Positions 1 to 6,248 of a stretch of DNA of 6,844 bases are shown here, piece by piece. A model generated the notes under the pieces. That model did no database searches. It worked only from the letters and a program-made list of their open reading frames with translations, and was not told where the DNA came from. Numbering within the stretch: the stretch's first letter is position 1; each line of letters starts with the position of its first letter. Position numbers and translations under genes: made by a program. Source of the stretch: a virus (lineage: Duplodnaviria; Heunggongvirae; Uroviricota; Caudoviricetes); the IMG/VR virus record IMGVR_UViG_2687453529_000005. One strand, written 5' to 3'.

Positions 1-54
1 ACGATCAGTAGAGGTGAATAGCGACCCACGACGCTATTCACCATGCCGGTTCAA

Positions 55-402
55 TTACGAATTACTGCGGCGCTGTTGCTTTTCCGCATGTACGCGTTTC
101 ACAATCTTATAAATCCATTGCAGCGTCAGATTATATTTCTTCGCTAATTCGGCGTAGTTGCGCCCATCGCACTCGCTATAGATTTGGTAGTCACGCTCCG
201 ATGCTCGTCCGGAGATCCCCTTAGGGAAATAGATGCTTTGTCCGCCCCAGTTACGCATCATTCGGTCGGCAATGGCAAAACCCACATTTTCTGCCGATGA
301 ACTGTCGAGATTGATGCTTTCAATCAGAACTTGCGATGCATGAAAAGCCAGGTCGTTAATGATCTCCGGTGTCCGGGCCATCTCTTTTGATTTTCGTATC
401 AT
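55..402 (-). CDS. Mor/C-family transcriptional activator (phage middle/late gene activator)
   Basis: 115-aa ORF with the Mor/C signature as I recall it from Mu Mor: ...GGQSIYFPKG...RD..IY...DGRNY.ELAKKYNLTLQWIYKIVKR (C-terminal HTH). GGAG Shine-Dalgarno about 8 nt upstream of the ATG at 400-402 on the minus strand. Oriented divergently from the lysis/tail genes. Confidence 0.8.
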   Translation of the reverse strand: MIRKSKEMARTPEIINDLAFHASQVLIESINLDSSSAENVGFAIADRMMRNWGGQSIYFPKGISGRASERDYQIYSECDGRNYAELAKKYNLTLQWIYKIVKRVHAEKQQRRSNS

Positions 403-623
403 TTTTCATCTCCATATATCTTGCATCCTGAATAAGACCCGATGCGTGTAAAACCACGGATATACGCTAAGCAGTTGTCATTACTGCTACTCAATACATT
501 CAATAAACAAATAAACAATCACCAAAAATATAAACTTTTAATATTAATGAACGTCATAAATTCACGAAATAAATATATTGTTTGGATTATGTTTCTTATC
601 AACAGGAGTATCATTTTACACTA

Positions 624-643
624 TACTGTATACATATACAGTA
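624..643. promoter_or_regulatory. Candidate LexA (SOS) box
   Basis: TACTGTATACATATACAGTA matches the E. coli LexA consensus TACTGTATATATATACAGTA at 19 of 20 positions, with CTGT-N8-ACAG intact. It overlaps a possible rightward sigma70 promoter (-35 TCAACA at 599-604, 17-bp spacer, -10 TATACT at 622-627). Lies in the AT-rich divergent region between the Mor-like gene and the lysis operon. Confidence 0.65.
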
Positions 644-939
644 TTATTTTTACCTGTAGAGTAAAAAGATCGTTTCCCTCACAGTCGCTGACTTTCTTAA
701 ACAAACTTTAAAAATCAAATAACTATCGACTATTCCTACGATCCACCATCATCTTTCCCCTGCATAATGACGCGCTTATTAGCCTGGTCACCTTTTGCTC
801 TTTAATTGCTGAGTCGATTTATTAGCGGGCTTGTTCATTTATAGAGAATCTATTTTTTAAACTTATTTATTAAAGCTTTTTTCATTCTTCACTGGCGGGG
901 TCTGACGACACTAAACGCTCACTTATCAGGAGATATCGT

Positions 940-1227
940 ATGAAAAAAGTCACTTTTCCCCGGCTTTCCGGCTGGCTAGTCGCTTCCGCCGCGCTGTTTG
1001 TCGTGATCGGCTGGACCTCTTCCGCACAGATCCCGGTCGTCATTTATAAACTAAGCCTGGTTTCGCTTTCCGCGGTGCTGGGATACTGGCTCGATCGCAG
1101 TTTGTTCCCCTGGGCACGGCCTGACTCTTTTAGCCCCTGGAAGGAACCTCGTTGCTGCGCGGCGGCAATGATTCGCCGCGCCATCATCGTTGCCGCCGTC
1201 TGTCTTTCCGTCGCCTTAGGGCTATAG
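940..1227 (+). CDS. Small membrane protein, holin candidate (first gene of lysis cassette)
   Basis: 95 aa with two to three hydrophobic helices (LSGWLVASAALFVVIGW; LSLVSLSAVLGYWL; AIIVAAVCLSVALGL). Strong SD AGGAGA 7 nt before the ATG. GC-rich with high third-position GC. Stop TAG at 1225-1227 lies 4 nt before the start of the next gene. The overlapping minus-strand ORF 1044-1442 is judged spurious. Confidence 0.55.
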   Translation: MKKVTFPRLSGWLVASAALFVVIGWTSSAQIPVVIYKLSLVSLSAVLGYWLDRSLFPWARPDSFSPWKEPRCCAAAMIRRAIIVAAVCLSVALGL

Positions 1228-1231
1228 TGAT

Positions 1232-1837
1232 GTGGCTGAAATATATCGCGTCTATGATTATTTTCGTTCTTTTCCCCGCTTAACCGCCTCTGAACCGCCG
1301 CGAGCCTCTCTGGCATGGCGAAACGAACTAATTCGTACAGCTCGAGAAGTCTGGGGGCTGAATGCTCCAGTGGCCGACTTTGCCGGGCAATTACACCAGG
1401 AGTCCGCCTGGCAGCCAATGGTACGTTCCCCCGTTGGCGCACAAGGTATGGCGCAATTTATGCCTGCTACAGCGACATGGATAAGCCAGTTGTATCCACA
1501 ATTGCGTGAAAACAAACCGTATAACCCAACCTGGGCGATTCGCGCGCTGGTGCAATATGACCAGCATTTGTGGAAAAACATCTCTGCGAAAAATGATTGT
1601 CAGCGTATGGCGTTTACCCTAAGCGCCTATAACGGCGGTCAGGGGTGGGTTAACCGGGATAAAAAACTGGCTGCATCCAAAGGGTTAGATGCCACTAGCT
1701 GGTTTGGTCATGTTGAGCAAGTCAACGCCGGGCGCAGCGCCACGAACTGGCGAGAAAATCGTCGCTATCCAAAGATGATCCTCTATCAACATGCCGCCCG
1801 CTATTTACTCTGGGGACAGGCAAGCTGTCTTCATTAA
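1232..1837 (+). CDS. Lytic transglycosylase (SLT-domain) endolysin
   Basis: 201 aa containing the family-1 lytic transglycosylase motifs in order: catalytic E-S (QLHQESAWQP), GMAQFMP (the GLMQ motif) and SAYNGGQG (the AYNxG motif). GTG start at 1232 is the first start after the in-frame stop at 1217-1219 and is probably translationally coupled to the upstream gene. No N-terminal signal or SAR-like hydrophobic segment. Confidence 0.8.
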   Translation: MAEIYRVYDYFRSFPRLTASEPPRASLAWRNELIRTAREVWGLNAPVADFAGQLHQESAWQPMVRSPVGAQGMAQFMPATATWISQLYPQLRENKPYNPTWAIRALVQYDQHLWKNISAKNDCQRMAFTLSAYNGGQGWVNRDKKLAASKGLDATSWFGHVEQVNAGRSATNWRENRRYPKMILYQHAARYLLWGQASCLH

Positions 1838-1849
1838 TCAGAGGGGCCG

Positions 1850-2164
1850 ATGAAACTCAGTATCGATTTTTGGGAAGTGATCTCCCTTATGCTTTCCTTC
1901 GTTGGATTAATGTTTGCTGCCGGAAAACTGCTGTTAGCACAAATTGAAAAACGACTTAATGAGCGTTTTGAGTCTCTGGAAAATGCCCGCAGGGAATCAG
2001 AAACAAGTTGGTCGAAACTGGAAAGAGAATTTCTCGAATTTCGTGCCGAGCTTCCGCTGCATTATGTCCGCAGAGAAGATTATCTTCGTGGGCAAGCAGT
2101 ATTAGAAGCGAAGCTGGATGCCTTATATAGCAAAATCGAGCTGTTACAACGTGGCAGTTATTGA
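1850..2164 (+). CDS. Membrane-anchored coiled-coil protein; possible i-spanin-like or other lysis accessory protein
   Basis: 104 aa with an N-terminal hydrophobic segment (VISLMLSFVGLMFAAGKLLLA) followed by a highly charged, heptad-like helical region. SD GAGGGG 6 nt upstream of the ATG. Sits directly after the endolysin gene. No embedded or adjacent lipoprotein (o-spanin) ORF was found. Confidence 0.5.
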   Translation: MKLSIDFWEVISLMLSFVGLMFAAGKLLLAQIEKRLNERFESLENARRESETSWSKLEREFLEFRAELPLHYVRREDYLRGQAVLEAKLDALYSKIELLQRGSY

Positions 2165-2202
2165 AAAATCCCCACCCTTATGTAAGGGTGGGGATTTTTT
2201 TA
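2164..2202 (+). terminator. Rho-independent terminator (likely bidirectional)
   Basis: Perfect GC-rich inverted repeat AAAAATCCCCACCCTTA-TG-TAAGGGTGGGGATTTTT followed by a run of 8 T; the A-run on the 5' side gives a U-tract on the opposite strand as well. Lies immediately after the stop of the 1850-2164 gene. Confidence 0.8.
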
Positions 2203-2308
2203 ACCATTCAATTTTTTCTCTAAATCACATTAAAAGATTCTTCACCTTCGCTGCTTCAGAATACATTTCAACGATAACGAAGTGAGCGGTAATTAAGGTA
2301 CAGCCTAT

Positions 2309-2764
2309 ATGGAAATTTTATCTGTAATGAATTCTGTTGTGACCAGATTACGTGAACACAACTCCGAAATGGATATATTTATTTCATCTAAGGATGCCCA
2401 GAAATATATTCCACAGACACAACGAGTTGCAGTGATTATTAATTATAGCGGTTCTGTCTTTGCTACGCCCGAAAGCAGTAATGCCATCGTGCAACAGCAA
2501 ATACTCCGCTTAACCGCCACCGTTATTGTTGGCAAAAATTGTGATGCATTAAACGCACTTGATCACATACGCAGCGCATTGGGTGGCCTTCCGCTTCCTG
2601 ATTGTGATCGTCTGCTTTGGCTTGAAAAAGAAATTAATACGGGTGAGAGCGGCGGTTTCTGCCGCTACATCCTGGAAATGGCGACCAGCTCGCTGTTTAT
2701 CGCTGAACAGGAAAGCACGGATCTTCCCCTGCTTACGGAAGTTAACTACGAGGAAACTGAATGA
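2309..2764 (+). CDS. Putative tail completion / terminator protein (Mu gp37-like position upstream of sheath)
   Basis: 151-aa ORF with AAGG 10 nt upstream of the ATG. Its stop overlaps the next start in an ATGA arrangement (2761-2764). Function is inferred from gene order in Mu/P2-type tail modules, not from a recognised motif. Confidence 0.5.
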   Translation: MEILSVMNSVVTRLREHNSEMDIFISSKDAQKYIPQTQRVAVIINYSGSVFATPESSNAIVQQQILRLTATVIVGKNCDALNALDHIRSALGGLPLPDCDRLLWLEKEINTGESGGFCRYILEMATSSLFIAEQESTDLPLLTEVNYEETE

Positions 2765-2958
2765 AATACATCTACAACGGCCCAGCAAGCGGCGTCACCC
2801 TTGCCGATGGACAAGAAATCTTATTGTGGCCGAACAGTGAAATTGATCTGCCAGAAGACAACGAGTGGGTCATGACCATGATTGCCCGCAATCATCTGAC
2901 TCCTGTCATCACTCAGGAAGAACAAAATAACGTAGAGGAAATTGTACATGGCAGCTAA
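2761..2958 (+). CDS. Small acidic protein of unknown function (Mu gp38-like position)
   Basis: 65-aa ORF translationally coupled at both ends: ATGA overlap with the upstream gene and an 11-nt overlap with the sheath start. No recognisable motif; supported only by operon context. Confidence 0.4.
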   Translation: MKYIYNGPASGVTLADGQEILLWPNSEIDLPEDNEWVMTMIARNHLTPVITQEEQNNVEEIVHGS

Positions 2959-4372
2959 TTATCTGCACGGTGTAGAAACTATTGAAATTGAAACCGGCCC
3001 GCGTCCGGTTAAAGCGGTAAAATCCGCCGTCATCGCTTTAATCGGTACATCCCCCTGCGGTCCGGTAAATAAACCAACATTATGCCTTTCTGAAAGCGAT
3101 GCTGCGCAGTTTGGCTCGACTCAGGCTAACTTTACGATCCCACAGGCACTGAAGGCAATTTATGACCACGGTGCCGGTACGGTGGTGGTGATTAACGTGC
3201 TGGATCCGGCAAAACATGGCTCCAACATCAGCAATGAGAGTATCACTTTTGATGCTAACAACCAGGCGAAGCTCGCTCACCGCAATGTGCGTAACGTGGT
3301 ACTAAAGCCCTCTTCATCAAATTCATCAACCTTTAACACCGCAGCATTTAGCGTAGATGAACAAACAGGCATAATTACCCGTAAAGGAGCCGACATTCCT
3401 CCTGGTGCGAAAGTTTGTGCCTATTATTCCTGGTGCGACCCTACAAAGGTCACCGCAGCCGATATTATCGGTACCGTAAATACCGCAGGCGACCGCACGG
3501 GGATGAAACTCCTTCAGGACACCTATAACCTGTACGGTTTCTACGCCAAAATCCTGCTTGCTCCTGTGTTTTGTACGCAAAAATCGGTGACTACTGAGCT
3601 GATTGCACAAGCGGAAAAACTCGGTGCGATTACCTACATTGATGCCCCGATTGGGACAACATTCCAGCAGGTATTGGCTGGACGCGGTTCGCAAGGGGCT
3701 ATCAACTTCAATACCAGCTCTGATCGTGCGCGTTTATGTTACCCACATGTCAAAGTTTACGATGGCATCACTAACCAGGAAATTCTTGAGCCTCTCTCTT
3801 CGCGTGCTGCCGGGCTGCGTGCCAAAGTAGACCTCGAAAAAGGTTTCTGGTGGAGCAACTCAAACCAGGAAATTCAGGGTATTACCGGTATTGAACGTTC
3901 GCTTTCCGCAATGATTGATGATCCACAAAGCGAAGTGAATCAGCTCAACGAAAACGGCATTACCACTATTTTCAATAGTTACGGCTCTGGTCTGCGCTTG
4001 TGGGGTAACCGCACAGCGGCATGGCCTACCGTGACCCATATGCGTAACTTTGAAAACGTCCGCCGGACAGGCGATGTAATCAATGAGTCAATCCGTTATT
4101 TCAGTCAGCAGTATATTGATATGCCGATTAATCAGGCACTTATTGACGCGCTGACCGAATCGGTAAATACCTGGGGCCGAAAACTGATTGCCGACGGCGC
4201 ACTGCTTGGCTTTGAGTGCTGGTACGATCCGGCACGAAATTCACCGGCTGAACTCAGCGCCGGGCATTTATTGCTGAGCTATAAATTCACCCCGCCACCG
4301 CCGCTGGAACGTCTGACGTTTGAAACTGAAATTACTTCTGAATATTTAGTCTCTCTGGAGAGCAATAGCTAA
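2948..4372 (+). CDS. Contractile tail sheath protein (P2 FI / Mu L family)
   Basis: N-terminus MAANYLHGVETIEIETGPRPVKAVKSAVIALIGTSP matches the conserved sheath N-terminal pattern (HGV..E...G.R.I...S.A..G.VGT) as recalled for P2 FI and Mu L. About 474 aa. SD GAGGAA 7 nt upstream of the ATG at 2948; the ORF track's TTG at 2942 is less likely. Stop overlaps the tube start (TAATG). Confidence 0.9.
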   Translation: MAANYLHGVETIEIETGPRPVKAVKSAVIALIGTSPCGPVNKPTLCLSESDAAQFGSTQANFTIPQALKAIYDHGAGTVVVINVLDPAKHGSNISNESITFDANNQAKLAHRNVRNVVLKPSSSNSSTFNTAAFSVDEQTGIITRKGADIPPGAKVCAYYSWCDPTKVTAADIIGTVNTAGDRTGMKLLQDTYNLYGFYAKILLAPVFCTQKSVTTELIAQAEKLGAITYIDAPIGTTFQQVLAGRGSQGAINFNTSSDRARLCYPHVKVYDGITNQEILEPLSSRAAGLRAKVDLEKGFWWSNSNQEIQGITGIERSLSAMIDDPQSEVNQLNENGITTIFNSYGSGLRLWGNRTAAWPTVTHMRNFENVRRTGDVINESIRYFSQQYIDMPINQALIDALTESVNTWGRKLIADGALLGFECWYDPARNSPAELSAGHLLLSYKFTPPPPLERLTFETEITSEYLVSLESNS

Positions 4373-4896
4373 TGGCTGGAAAAATTCAAATTAACCGTAT
4401 TACCAACGCCAATATTTATCTCGATGGTAATAACCTTTTAGGTCGTGCAACAGAAATTAAATTGCCGGATGTAAGTTTAATTATGCAGGAGCATAAAGCA
4501 CTGGGCATGGTGGGTAAAATCGAACTCCCGGCAGGTTTCGATAAACTGGAGGGCGAAATTAAATGGAACTCCTTCTATCAGGACGTAATGCGTAAAACGG
4601 CAAACCCGTGGCAGGCGGTTGCATTACAGTGCCGCTCCAGTATTGATTGCTATAACTCCCAGGGGAAAGCGAATCAATTAGCGCTAGTGACACATTTAAC
4701 CGTGATGTTTAAAAAGAATCCACTGGGCACATTTAAACAGAATGAAAACCCGGAATTCAGCAGCGCCTTTGGTTGCACTTATATTAAACAAGTAGTTGAT
4801 GGTGAAACGCTGCTTGAACTTGATTATATGGCCAATATTTTCCGGGTTAATGGTGTGGATCAATTAAGTACCTATCGCAATAACATCGGTGGCTAA
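4372..4896 (+). CDS. Tail tube protein (P2 FII / Mu M family)
   Basis: 174 aa; C-terminus ...FRVNGVDQLSTYRNNIGG closely resembles the P2 FII C-terminus as recalled (...VNGVD.L...R.NIGL). Immediately follows the sheath gene with a 1-nt overlap. Confidence 0.9.
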   Translation: MAGKIQINRITNANIYLDGNNLLGRATEIKLPDVSLIMQEHKALGMVGKIELPAGFDKLEGEIKWNSFYQDVMRKTANPWQAVALQCRSSIDCYNSQGKANQLALVTHLTVMFKKNPLGTFKQNENPEFSSAFGCTYIKQVVDGETLLELDYMANIFRVNGVDQLSTYRNNIGG

Positions 4897-4900
4897 GTTA

Positions 4901-4920
4901 TTCGGGGCTACGGCCCCGAA
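4901..4920 (+). other. Stem-loop between tube and chaperone genes (possible attenuator or mRNA-stabilising hairpin)
   Basis: TTCGGGGC-TACG-GCCCCGAA is a perfect 8-bp GC-rich stem with a 4-nt loop, 5 nt after the tube stop, followed only by CTTT (weak U-tract). Confidence 0.35.
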
Positions 4921-4946
4921 CTTTGCAAAATAAATAAGGACACAAA

Positions 4947-5264
4947 ATGAAAGAACATTATATCTTGCAGTTTCCATTTACGTCGGCAGCAGGAAATAAT
5001 ATCGACACGCTGCAATTACGTCGCCTGAAAGTAAAAGATATGCGCAACGCCCGCCGGATCAGCGAAAAGCCAGAAGAGTGGGATGAACCGCTGATGGCGG
5101 CGATGACCGGACTGGTGCCAGAAGATTTAGCCGAAATGGATTTGCTGGATTACCAGGCATTGCAGAAACGATTTCAATCCATGCTTACCGTGGTTACAGA
5201 ATCCTCCCCTGCTATGGCAGGCAATGGCGCTACTGGCGAGATGGTTTCGCTTTCCGCCCAGTGA
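4947..5264 (+). CDS. Tail assembly chaperone (P2 gpE-like)
   Basis: 105-aa ORF between the tube and tape measure genes, the conserved position of the tail chaperone. SD AAGGA 9 nt upstream. Similarity to P2 gpE is from recall only and is loose; ends ...SLSAQ. Confidence 0.7.
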   Translation: MKEHYILQFPFTSAAGNNIDTLQLRRLKVKDMRNARRISEKPEEWDEPLMAAMTGLVPEDLAEMDLLDYQALQKRFQSMLTVVTESSPAMAGNGATGEMVSLSAQ

Positions 5265-5352
5265 GATAGACGCCCTTACCGTCGATGACTTTAGCAACTG
5301 GCTGGATGAAGCCAGCGCCCAAATAAAAATCGAATATGACTCGCAGACCTGA
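5131..5352 (+). other. Open +1 frame overlapping the chaperone 3' end and extending about 29 codons past its stop (candidate E-prime-type frameshift extension or small overlapping ORF)
   Basis: The frame shifted +1 relative to the chaperone is stop-free from 5131 to the TGA at 5350-5352 and reads ...MALLARWFRFPPSEIDALTVDDFSNWLDEASAQIKIEYDSQT. The -1 frame hits TAG at 5267-5269. An internal ATG at 5224 could alternatively initiate a 42-codon ORF. Confidence 0.4.
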
Positions 5353-5453
5353 TGTCTGCGAGTTTCCCAAGCCCGTCAGGTTTATTTCTTCCCTGCCCCT
5401 TTTTTTAGAAAAATAACCAGCGGGCCATTATCAATATTTAAAGAGAAACAATT

Positions 5454-6248
5454 TTGGCCAACGATATTATTACCCAGCTTCAGGCGCGTAATGAGACGTT
5501 GACGCAGGCAATAGCCCGTTACGGCTCACTCAACGCCAGAACATTGTTAACTCTCTCTACTCAGCAGGCGACAGTTATCAAACTAACGCAGCAGCTTGCC
5601 GATTCCGCTCTCCGCCTGGAGGAAAATAGCCGCAGCCGCGCTAATCTGATGGAGAAAACCCAAACATTTGCCGGGCAATTTAGCAAAGTATTCAATGTTG
5701 AAGCCCCCGACTGGAAGTTGCCGTATGAGTTTCAGGACAACATGGTCAATATGGCGACCAAAGGTGGGATGAATGCTACAACCCGCGAGACGCTCAGCCT
5801 TAATCTGCGCGACTGGAGCATGGATTTTAACCAGCAGCAGACCACCTTACAGAACGCAGCCCAAACGCTGATCGAAGGCAATTTGTCGTCGATGCAGGAT
5901 CTCAACCGTTATATGCCGGAGATCGCCAAAGCTGCCACCGCCACGCGCGAAAGTGCTGAAACGTGGGCGAATGCCGCGCTCGCGACTCATGATCGACTGA
6001 ATATTGCCCCGGAAAATTTCCACGCCGCGCAAAACATGATGTACGGCATTAGCAAAAGCGGTGGGCCTGCCATTGCTGAACAAACGCAGTGGATAGAGAA
6101 ATTTGCAGGTAAAACCGGCGCTCAGGGTCTGGAAGGTATGGCTGAACTGACTGCCGCCATGCAGATCGCAATGAAAAATGGGGCCAGCGCCAGTGCGGCG
6201 GCGGAGAATTTTGAAATGATTTACTGGAGAGTTTATCAAAAGCGTTAA
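5454..6248 (+). pseudogene. Tail tape measure protein, N-terminal fragment only (truncated by deletion)
   Basis: TTG start after the chaperone, in the expected tape measure position, with Ala/Gln-rich helical sequence typical of tape measure N-termini. The ORF stops after about 264 codons, far too short for a sheathed-tail tape measure, and its last ~11 codons (..EMIYWRVYQKR) are read out of frame from cadC-like sequence. Confidence 0.6.

Follow-up and report, generated by a model that had tools for sequence, protein, structure and literature searches.

A putative LexA operator upstream of a Mor-family activator gene in the lysC-linked tail and lysis cluster of Escherichia coli, Salmonella and relatives

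This study concerns a 20-bp palindrome at positions 624–643 of a 6,844-nucleotide stretch of DNA (hereafter the window) taken from the IMG/VR virus record IMGVR_UViG_2687453529_000005, which is 100% identical to sequence type 648 (ST648) Escherichia coli NZ_CP008697. Judged by its sequence, its score and its phylogenetic footprint, the palindrome is a bona fide LexA-type operator. It lies in the divergent control region between a Mor-family gene (55–402, minus strand) and a holin gene (940–1227, plus strand). The genes around it belong to a cluster whose complete native locus is situated between lysC and yjbD and which, as read from its gene content, is probably a domesticated, head-less tail and lysis cluster of Bcepmuvirus type, that is, a carotovoricin-like R-type tailocin locus. 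The explanation that we prefer, with moderate confidence, is that the box serves as a high-affinity operator for host LexA at the head of a cascade in which LexA controls mor, Mor activates the late promoters, and these drive the production of tail particles and lysis. What has been regarded as a "defective prophage" of E. coli and Salmonella is thus probably a DNA-damage-triggered, tail-shaped bacteriocin.

The LexA box and its phylogenetic footprint

The 20-mer TACTGTATACATATACAGTA at 624–643 contains the arms CTGT (626–629) and ACAG (638–641) and matches the LexA consensus TACTGTATATATATACAGTA, as given in PMC8072944 and PMC11228462, at 19 of 20 positions, the sole mismatch being a C at position 10. 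An earlier note on this DNA had described a near-consensus LexA box with one mismatch at this site, and that description is exact. The box also conforms to the SOS-box definition of a 20-bp palindrome, TACTG(TA)5CAGTA, with an invariant CTG-N10-CAG. The exact pattern CTGT-N8-ACAG occurs once in the window and once in the 46-kb native locus of strain CFSAN061771 (L003), in each case as the box itself, and matches with three or fewer mismatches to the consensus were absent from 200 dinucleotide-preserving shuffles of the window. Scoring with a LexA matrix, a check that the same note had proposed, was carried out with a heterology-index-type matrix rebuilt from 28 E. coli LexA sites (Lewis 1994; Fernandez de Henestrosa 2000), which approximates the original Lewis 1994 matrix and is not identical to it. 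On this approximate scale the box has an index of 1.9–2.05, on a par with umuDC, dinD and recN box 1 and surpassing that of recA (5.0), and the second-best 20-mer of the window scores 15. Known LexA sites have indices of about 2–13 (PMC11228462 Table 1), placing the box in the functional range.

The Mor–holin spacer has a GC content of 26–36%, for which we roughly estimate the expectation of a chance match with at most one mismatch at about 1e-6. A chance palindrome was ruled out by the shuffles, the score and the conservation described below. A role as a cruciform or hairpin was likewise rejected, the predicted DNA fold being only modest (-6.4 kcal/mol, z = -2.1). Motif and matrix searches of the window and of the L003 cluster revealed neither further LexA boxes nor colicin-like tandem boxes.

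To obtain a phylogenetic footprint, 17 orthologous Mor–holin spacers were compared. The spacer as a whole is poorly conserved, with a mean column identity of 59% and many insertions and deletions; the box is present in 14 of the 17, with indices of 0.5–4.9. The box-bearing loci come from six genera (Escherichia coli and E. albertii, Salmonella, Citrobacter, Dryocola, Phytobacter and Superficieibacter). The box lies 219–231 nt from the Mor ATG, or 292 nt in one locus with an insertion, and its distance to the holin gene ranges from 297 nt in the window to about 341 nt in the loci for which it was computed. Substitutions fall nearly all in the 8-bp spacer of the box, CTGT and ACAG being unchanged throughout and a flanking base being altered in two variants or lineages. 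The variants seen were TACTGTATACATATACAGTA, TACTGTATACACATACAGTA, TACTGTATGCACATACAGTA, TACTGTATATATATACAGTT, TACTGTATGCATATACAGT(A/T/C), TACTGTATGTATATACAGCT, TACTGTATAAATAAACAGTA and CACTGTGTTTATATACAGCA, in addition to TACTGTATGTACATACAGTA, which was reconstructed for strain IAI39. The Salmonella box reads TACTGTATATATATACAGTT or TACTGTATGCATATACAGTT, and a box was found in all five Salmonella-like IMG/VR contigs. Because a free spacer between fixed CTGT and ACAG arms mirrors the known information content of LexA sites, this pattern argues for LexA-type use of the box.

The three spacers lacking the box belong to an Enterobacter clade (L025, L045 and L046), in which the box and the adjacent 9-mer CATTTTACA described below, with its TTTACA, are lost and the downstream late-promoter island has diverged. 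These loci keep Mor (90% identical) together with the lysis and tail genes. In one of them (L045), the cluster is inverted inside the lysC/yjbD interval, with Mor adjoining yjbD. No LexA box was found in the Bcepmuvirus PhiKM, whose early operon ends with GemA followed by Mor, or in the other true Mu-like prophages and phages examined with Mor behind GemA. The Mor genes of the Pasteurellaceae loci and the holin gene of carotovoricin likewise have none upstream. The earlier note had stated that Mu-like phages are normally not SOS-inducible through LexA, with which PhiKM, a true phage of the lineage, agrees. Inheritance of the box from a parent phage was rejected on its absence from PhiKM and upstream of the Pasteurellaceae Mor genes. 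Since the box is kept in 14 of 17 spacers and is absent from the phages and from carotovoricin, it is a specific, selected trait of the domesticated lineage rather than a phage-derived one.

Several derivatives of the locus were also observed. In some Salmonella genomes and gut-metagenome contigs (L023, L024, L031 and L032), only Mor, full-length or truncated, remains beside lysC; these Mor-only remnants carry no box, and unrelated genes, for a hexapeptide transferase or a glycosyltransferase, stand in place of the box and the entire tail cluster. A Lelliottia-like locus (L047 1270–1906) has an HTH_3/XRE-type gene before the holin gene, where Mor would otherwise stand, and lacks a LexA box; its cluster, with a sheath 79% identical, looks tail-only within a 9.4-kb stretch. 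The XRE-type gene in place of Mor and the missing box suggest another regulatory solution for the same structural module. In IAI39 (L021 4620–6530), ISEc53, an element of the ISL3 family with a ClbS/DfsB-family gene on board, interrupts the box in its 8-bp centre (corresponding to window 631–637) with an 8-bp target duplication, ATGTACAT, splitting the operator and moving Mor 1.9 kb from the lysis operon. Strain MS 21-1 shows the same boundary in blast comparisons.

Promoters around the box and control of mor

The box overlaps two promoters predicted from the sequence. The 9-mer CATTTTACA (612–620) lies 3–4 nt to the left of the box (3 nt in the window), is invariant in most box-bearing orthologues and carries one substitution in two of them. 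According to alignments A1/A2 and a promoter scan, it would supply a -35 TTTACA (615–620) on the plus strand and a -10 TAAAAT (618–613) on the minus strand. The candidate rightward sigma-70 promoter, P_R (615–642, plus strand), combines TTTACA with TACAGT (637–642) across 16 nt for a 9/12 match; its spacer and -10 fall inside the LexA box, and both hexamers are conserved among relatives. The candidate leftward promoter, P_L (613–640, minus strand), joins TAAAAT (reverse complement of 613–618) across 16 nt to a weak -35, TGTATA (reverse complement of 635–640), within the box, and would serve mor.

Other candidates were rejected. The -10 TATACT (622–627) proposed in the earlier note is present and pairs with TCAACA at 17 nt (9/12), but that -35 is not kept in relatives, and rightward TTTACA/TACAGT is better supported. 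A minus-strand scan match, ATGATA-17 nt-CATAAT, is not conserved in relatives either. A LexA-controlled small gene or small RNA within the spacer was discarded because the sequence right of the box holds no conserved open reading frame of 20 aa or more, gives no Rfam hit and is rich in indels. The interval from the box to the holin gene contains no predicted terminator. A search for transcription starts in the Salmonella supplements of Canals 2019 returned only a single-nucleotide polymorphism entry for the STM4218/STM4219 spacer.

The product of the divergent gene (55–402, minus strand; 115 aa) is a Mor/C-family late transcription activator with the family domain and its C-terminal helix-turn-helix (Pfam PF08765, 7e-38, residues 10–112; PHROG "late transcriptional activator"). 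It matches the PDB structures of Mu Mor (1RR7, 5e-8) and Mu C (9L0X, 7e-5) and shares 50% identity with RdgB of Pectobacterium, which goes by the names "regulator of pectin lyase production" and "regulator of pectin lyase and carotovoricin". Three conserved AT-rich islands on the plus strand, preceding -10-like hexamers with no accompanying -35, are candidate activator-dependent promoters of the lysis and tail operons, a likeness that extends to PhiKM and carotovoricin. The first (696–742), recognized from conservation in A2, consists of CTTAAAC-AAA-CTTTAAAAATC (696–716) and a -10-like TACGAT (737–742), and by eye it resembles elements upstream of the holin gene in carotovoricin (L042 3815–3860) and PhiKM (L037 32245–32300). 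The second (853–912), a candidate late promoter of the lysis operon, comprises TTTTTTAAACTTATTTATTAAAG (853–875), TTCTTCAC (885–892) and a -10-like GACACT (907–912), which is GATACT in most relatives; its motif occurs once in the 46-kb L003, and the promoter scan returned no -35 match for it. The third (2212–2266), identified in alignment A3 upstream of the tail genes, contains TTTTTTCTCTAAATCACATTAAAAGA (2212–2237) and TTCTTCAC (2238–2245), and its motif also occurs upstream of the PhiKM head operon and of carotovoricin Gp37. Assignment of an exact Mor binding site failed, as the three similar islands differ in their spacing to the -10-like hexamers.

The third island sits after an intrinsic terminator (2163–2203, plus strand), a GC-rich hairpin with a T run (-26.9 kcal/mol, z = -5.7). 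Because this terminator is strong, the tail genes would need a promoter of their own or antitermination. The terminator parts the lysis cassette from the tail genes, and its symmetric A-run and T-run may make it bidirectional.

These elements can be assembled into the following cascade. In an undamaged cell, a LexA dimer on 624–643 would occlude P_L of mor and possibly also P_R. DNA damage would give rise to RecA filaments and hence to LexA self-cleavage, and the loss of LexA would allow mor to be transcribed. Mor would then activate the late promoters that lack a -35, at 696–742 and/or 853–912 for the holin gene and at 2212–2266 for Gp37, after which tail particles would assemble and the holin/SLT cassette would lyse the producer. 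Control of mor is favoured by the constant distance from the box to Mor as against the variable distance from the box to the holin gene, and by the presence of conserved promoter-like islands without a -35 in front of both the lysis and the tail operon. It is also favoured by RNA sequencing of Salmonella Typhimurium 14028, in which nalidixic acid raised STM14_5073 (348 bp) 4.08-fold (PMC8072944 Dataset S1), no lysis or tail gene being among those that rose at least 2-fold. These data, the sole expression data, lead us to favour the activator rather than the lysis operon as the target of LexA.

Several points weigh against this cascade. LexA binding, the choice of the repressed promoter, activation of the late promoters by Mor and the formation of particles are all inferred steps, and the consensus match is better for the rightward P_R (9/12) than for the leftward P_L (about 8/12, with its weak -35). 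Length and map position were the only criteria by which STM14_5073 was equated with the Mor orthologue STM4219, and the Salmonella box was read from sequences other than that of strain 14028. The lysis and tail genes STM14_505x–5072 are not among the genes at least 2-fold up with nalidixic acid, and a 4-fold induction of mor is weak evidence given that 1091 genes in that dataset rose at least 2-fold. STM14_5073 is also missing from the published list of box-bearing SOS genes (PMC8072944 Table 1), though copies of the Salmonella spacer have a strong box about 227 nt upstream. The Enterobacter clade, with Mor and tail genes but no box, indicates that LexA control is dispensable for retention of the cluster. 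Finally, the literature searched contains no report of tail particles from the lysC/yjbD cluster.

The alternative that survives best, although we regard it as unlikely, is that LexA directly represses P_R, from which a leader of about 290 nt would be read into the holin/lysis operon in the manner of colicins, Mor being independent and serving only to boost or time the tail genes. P_R is the best sigma-70 match of the region, its -35 is conserved at a fixed 3–4 nt from the box, and the leader could be read through in the absence of a predicted terminator; however, that leader varies in both length and sequence and holds conserved islands that look like activator-dependent promoters and recur in carotovoricin and PhiKM. 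In Salmonella, moreover, nalidixic acid induced Mor, whereas the holin and SLT genes did not reach a 2-fold rise, and the fixed distance from the box is to Mor, not to the holin gene.

Lower still in probability, we consider it rather improbable that a single LexA dimer shuts both P_L and P_R, facing each other as at uvrA/ssb, with the rightward leader transcript having a regulatory role such as transcriptional interference or priming of the late promoters. The overlap of both sets of hexamers with the box, their shared conserved 9-mer and the existence of boxes shared by divergent genes (PMC8072944) would suit this arrangement, but no conserved open reading frame, Rfam family or structure was found in the leader, and a two-promoter model is more complex than the data require. 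That the palindrome goes unused by LexA in vivo, being a relic, an operator of Mor or of a lost phage repressor, or an AT-rich insertion target, is very improbable: the ISL3-family insertion exactly at the box centre in IAI39, the Enterobacter clade with its genes retained and its box gone, and a GC content at which H-NS-type proteins might, as we infer, silence the region could all be cited for it, but the arms and flanks are exactly the LexA motif, variation across six genera mirrors LexA information content, a chance origin is of the order estimated above, the locus has no other repressor gene, and the conserved islands resembling late-promoter upstream elements look quite unlike the palindrome.

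The lysC-linked cluster and its relation to known systems

The complete native locus between lysC and yjbD was seen in CFSAN061771. Beyond the tape-measure gene it contains U-like, X, D, V, W, J and I genes and those for a tail fibre and its assembly, such that L003 20940–35770 encodes a full contractile-tail set of sheath, tube, tape measure, baseplate, fibre and chaperones. Head, terminase, portal, transposase, integrase and repressor genes are all absent from it, and comparison with PhiKM revealed none of the hallmarks of a Mu-like prophage (transposase A/B, c repressor/Ner, GemA, head, portal). The earlier note had set the element beside Mu-like phages. The comparison holds for its descent, the sheath being 71% identical to BcepMu gp39 and thus of the BcepMu lineage, but not for its present form, which is head-less, transposase-less and repressor-less at a fixed chromosomal site. 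A full tail, a fixed locus, an own lysis cassette, purifying selection and the lack of head, packaging, replication and integration genes together correspond to the gene content expected of an R-type tailocin.

About 200 of 5426 complete E. coli genomes (around 4%) carry the cluster, among them ST648 and the reference strain IAI39. It also occurs in Salmonella, Escherichia albertii, Citrobacter freundii, Dryocola, Phytobacter, Superficieibacter and Enterobacter, the lysC/yjbD interval housing it in seven named genera including Enterobacter, where it lacks the box. E. coli and Salmonella each have the full set of 18 genes in intact form. The ratio of nonsynonymous to synonymous substitution rates (dN/dS) between the two, computable for 16 of the 18 genes, is 0.04–0.24, with dS of about 0.5–1.8 and mostly above 1. 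Intact genes and low dN/dS indicate that the cluster is being maintained rather than decaying.

In Salmonella, the cluster corresponds to the "Def4" remnant, as shown by the cross-references to LT2 tags STM4198–STM4219 in an Infantis record. Def4 of Salmonella Typhimurium (STM4196–STM4219, "BTP6") is orthologous, lies beside lysC in the same gene order, encodes proteins 61–96% identical and bears the same box, in either of its two Salmonella forms. It has been described only as a defective remnant with gtrABC (PMC5322425); no description of its LexA box, Mor or a tailocin function, and no functional reading of Def4 or of its E. coli orthologue, was found in the literature. One difference is that Salmonella Def4 has gtrABC between V and W whereas E. 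coli does not: in Salmonella Infantis (L022 4451–7286), this O-antigen glucosylation operon stands between the baseplate genes V and W. Speculatively, gtrABC could confer self-immunity if the tail targets O-antigen.

Carotovoricin of Pectobacterium carotovorum, a head-less Mu-type system, has the same order of holin, SLT, Gp37, 65-aa protein, sheath, tube and onward. The tail-only cluster of Pectobacterium brasiliense (L042/L043), which we take to be carotovoricin, has a sheath 75–76% identical and similar AT-rich islands upstream of the holin gene and Gp37, and the positive regulator is a Mor-family activator in both systems, RdgB in one and, presumably, the window Mor in the other. RdgA, the repressor-type regulator paired with RdgB, is described as cI/LexA-like; details of RecA–RdgA–RdgB control are reportedly given by Liu et al. 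1994. The activator gene is unlinked in Pectobacterium, with no Mor gene beside the L042/L043 cluster, whereas mor is adjacent and divergent in the window. The window locus has a consensus host LexA box and no RdgA-like gene, whereas carotovoricin has RdgA and no LexA box upstream of its holin gene. By analogy, control of the lysC-linked cluster likeliest works as in the RecA–RdgA–RdgB circuit, with host LexA in place of RdgA. Carotovoricin has been characterized as a "Mu-type tailocin" without a dedicated repressor, and its signal is DNA damage (PMC13566846), as it would be for the lysC-linked cluster.

The Mu and BcepMu phages have an activator of the same family and homologous lysis and tail genes, the sheath being 74% identical to that of the E. 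coli Bcepmuvirus PhiKM, which also has the late-promoter upstream motif in common with the cluster. In these phages, Mor at the end of the early operon is ultimately under the phage c repressor, with no LexA box; the window cluster, by contrast, has lost its early region along with the transposase, the repressor and the head module.

The best-known tailocins are governed by LexA-like repressors of their own, PrtR for R-pyocins and RdgA for carotovoricin, rather than by host LexA. Colicins (colE1 cea-kil) and R-type pyocins are likewise SOS-induced, with bacteriocin release coupled to lysis. Pyocins follow a comparable two-tier logic, from repressor to activator to tail and lysis genes, but employ PrtR and an unrelated activator, PrtN, instead of host LexA and Mor (PMC12066065). 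In colicin promoters, a pair of overlapping LexA boxes follows closely after the -10, and no activator is required. The earlier note had likened the site to the direct LexA control of colicins and some tailocins. The site does lie between an activator gene and a lysis/tail operon, but the analogy with colicins is loose, as the cluster has only one box, at 297 nt from the holin ATG, and a Mor-family activator gene next to it. In coliphage 186 (tum) and Gifsy (dinI-gfoA), too, a host LexA box before a small regulatory gene couples a phage module to SOS (PMC3121763, PMC5322425). The LexA-controlled product in 186 and Gifsy is an antirepressor acting against a phage repressor; in the window it would be an activator, with no repressor to inactivate. 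SOS boxes before phage-derived regulators and SOS-induced bacteriocins with lysis genes (colicins, pyocins, carotovoricin) are already known, and no prior description of a host LexA box directly before a Mor/RdgB-type activator of a tail-only cluster was found in the literature.

More tentatively, and with some doubt as to the claim as a whole, the lysC-linked cluster may act in Escherichia, Salmonella, Citrobacter and relatives as a functional R-type tailocin under SOS induction, in the domestication of which LexA replaced a phage or RdgA-type repressor through a consensus box before a Mor-type activator, ST648 having a second LexA–Mor–lysis module on an ISEcp1-blaCTX-M unit. If so, the locus, which all S. 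Typhimurium strains and about 4% of complete E. coli genomes carry, would not be junk but a weapon and lysis module set off by DNA damage, and a directly LexA-controlled Mor-type activator would join the enterobacterial SOS regulon. The cluster would offer a simple, testable example of a phage cascade rewired to a host repressor during domestication, would explain carotovoricin-type clusters that "lack a dedicated repressor" and would provide a sister system for comparison with the Rdg circuit. It would further bear on quinolone-induced lysis, on DNA and vesicle release and on strain competition in clinically important lineages, and in ST648, DNA-damaging antibiotics could trigger lysis functions physically linked to a resistance gene.

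Window genes and mobile-element insertions

Apart from mor, all genes of the window lie on the plus strand. The lysis cassette (940–2164) consists of the holin gene (940–1227; Pfam Holin_2-3, 1e-26; PHROG holin), a gene for an SLT lytic transglycosylase (1232–1837; Pfam SLT, 9e-15) and one for a membrane protein or lipoprotein (1850–2164; PHROG lipoprotein). Beyond the terminator, Pfam matches and annotation identify Gp37 (2309–2764), the 65-aa protein (2761–2958), the sheath (2948–4372), the tube (4372–4896), a tail assembly chaperone (4947–5264) and the 5' part of the tape-measure gene (5454–6214), which is truncated in the window copy. The remainder (6215–6844) is the 3' part of cadC at the right end of an ISEcp1 transposition unit and stands outside the system.

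Positions 1–6214 are passenger DNA brought into cadC by an ISEcp1-blaCTX-M-14-IS903B transposition unit (L002 8799–21844), with a 5-bp target duplication, AATGA (6215–6219), and with the ISEcp1 left inverted repeat (IRL) abutting the 5' part of cadC. The unit, which ends within the tape-measure gene, further contains the 3' part of lysC and a fragment of a TonB receptor gene. As a consequence of this insertion, the genome has a second, truncated copy of the LexA box, Mor, lysis, sheath and tube region, together with a disrupted cadC. In E. coli FDAARGOS_497 (L001 26411–43120), the native lysC locus has its tape-measure gene split by a resistance island of about 17 kb, which comprises ISEcp1-CTX-M-15, IS26, aac(3)-IIe, OXA-1, aac(6')-Ib-cr and tet(A). 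The tail cluster is a repeated landing site of ISEcp1 units in this lineage. Where the holin gene gives way to the SLT gene (1228–1232), a 2-bp indel distinguishes the window copy from the native allele and results in a GTG-started SLT protein, WP_060684353, as compared with the native WP_000266448.

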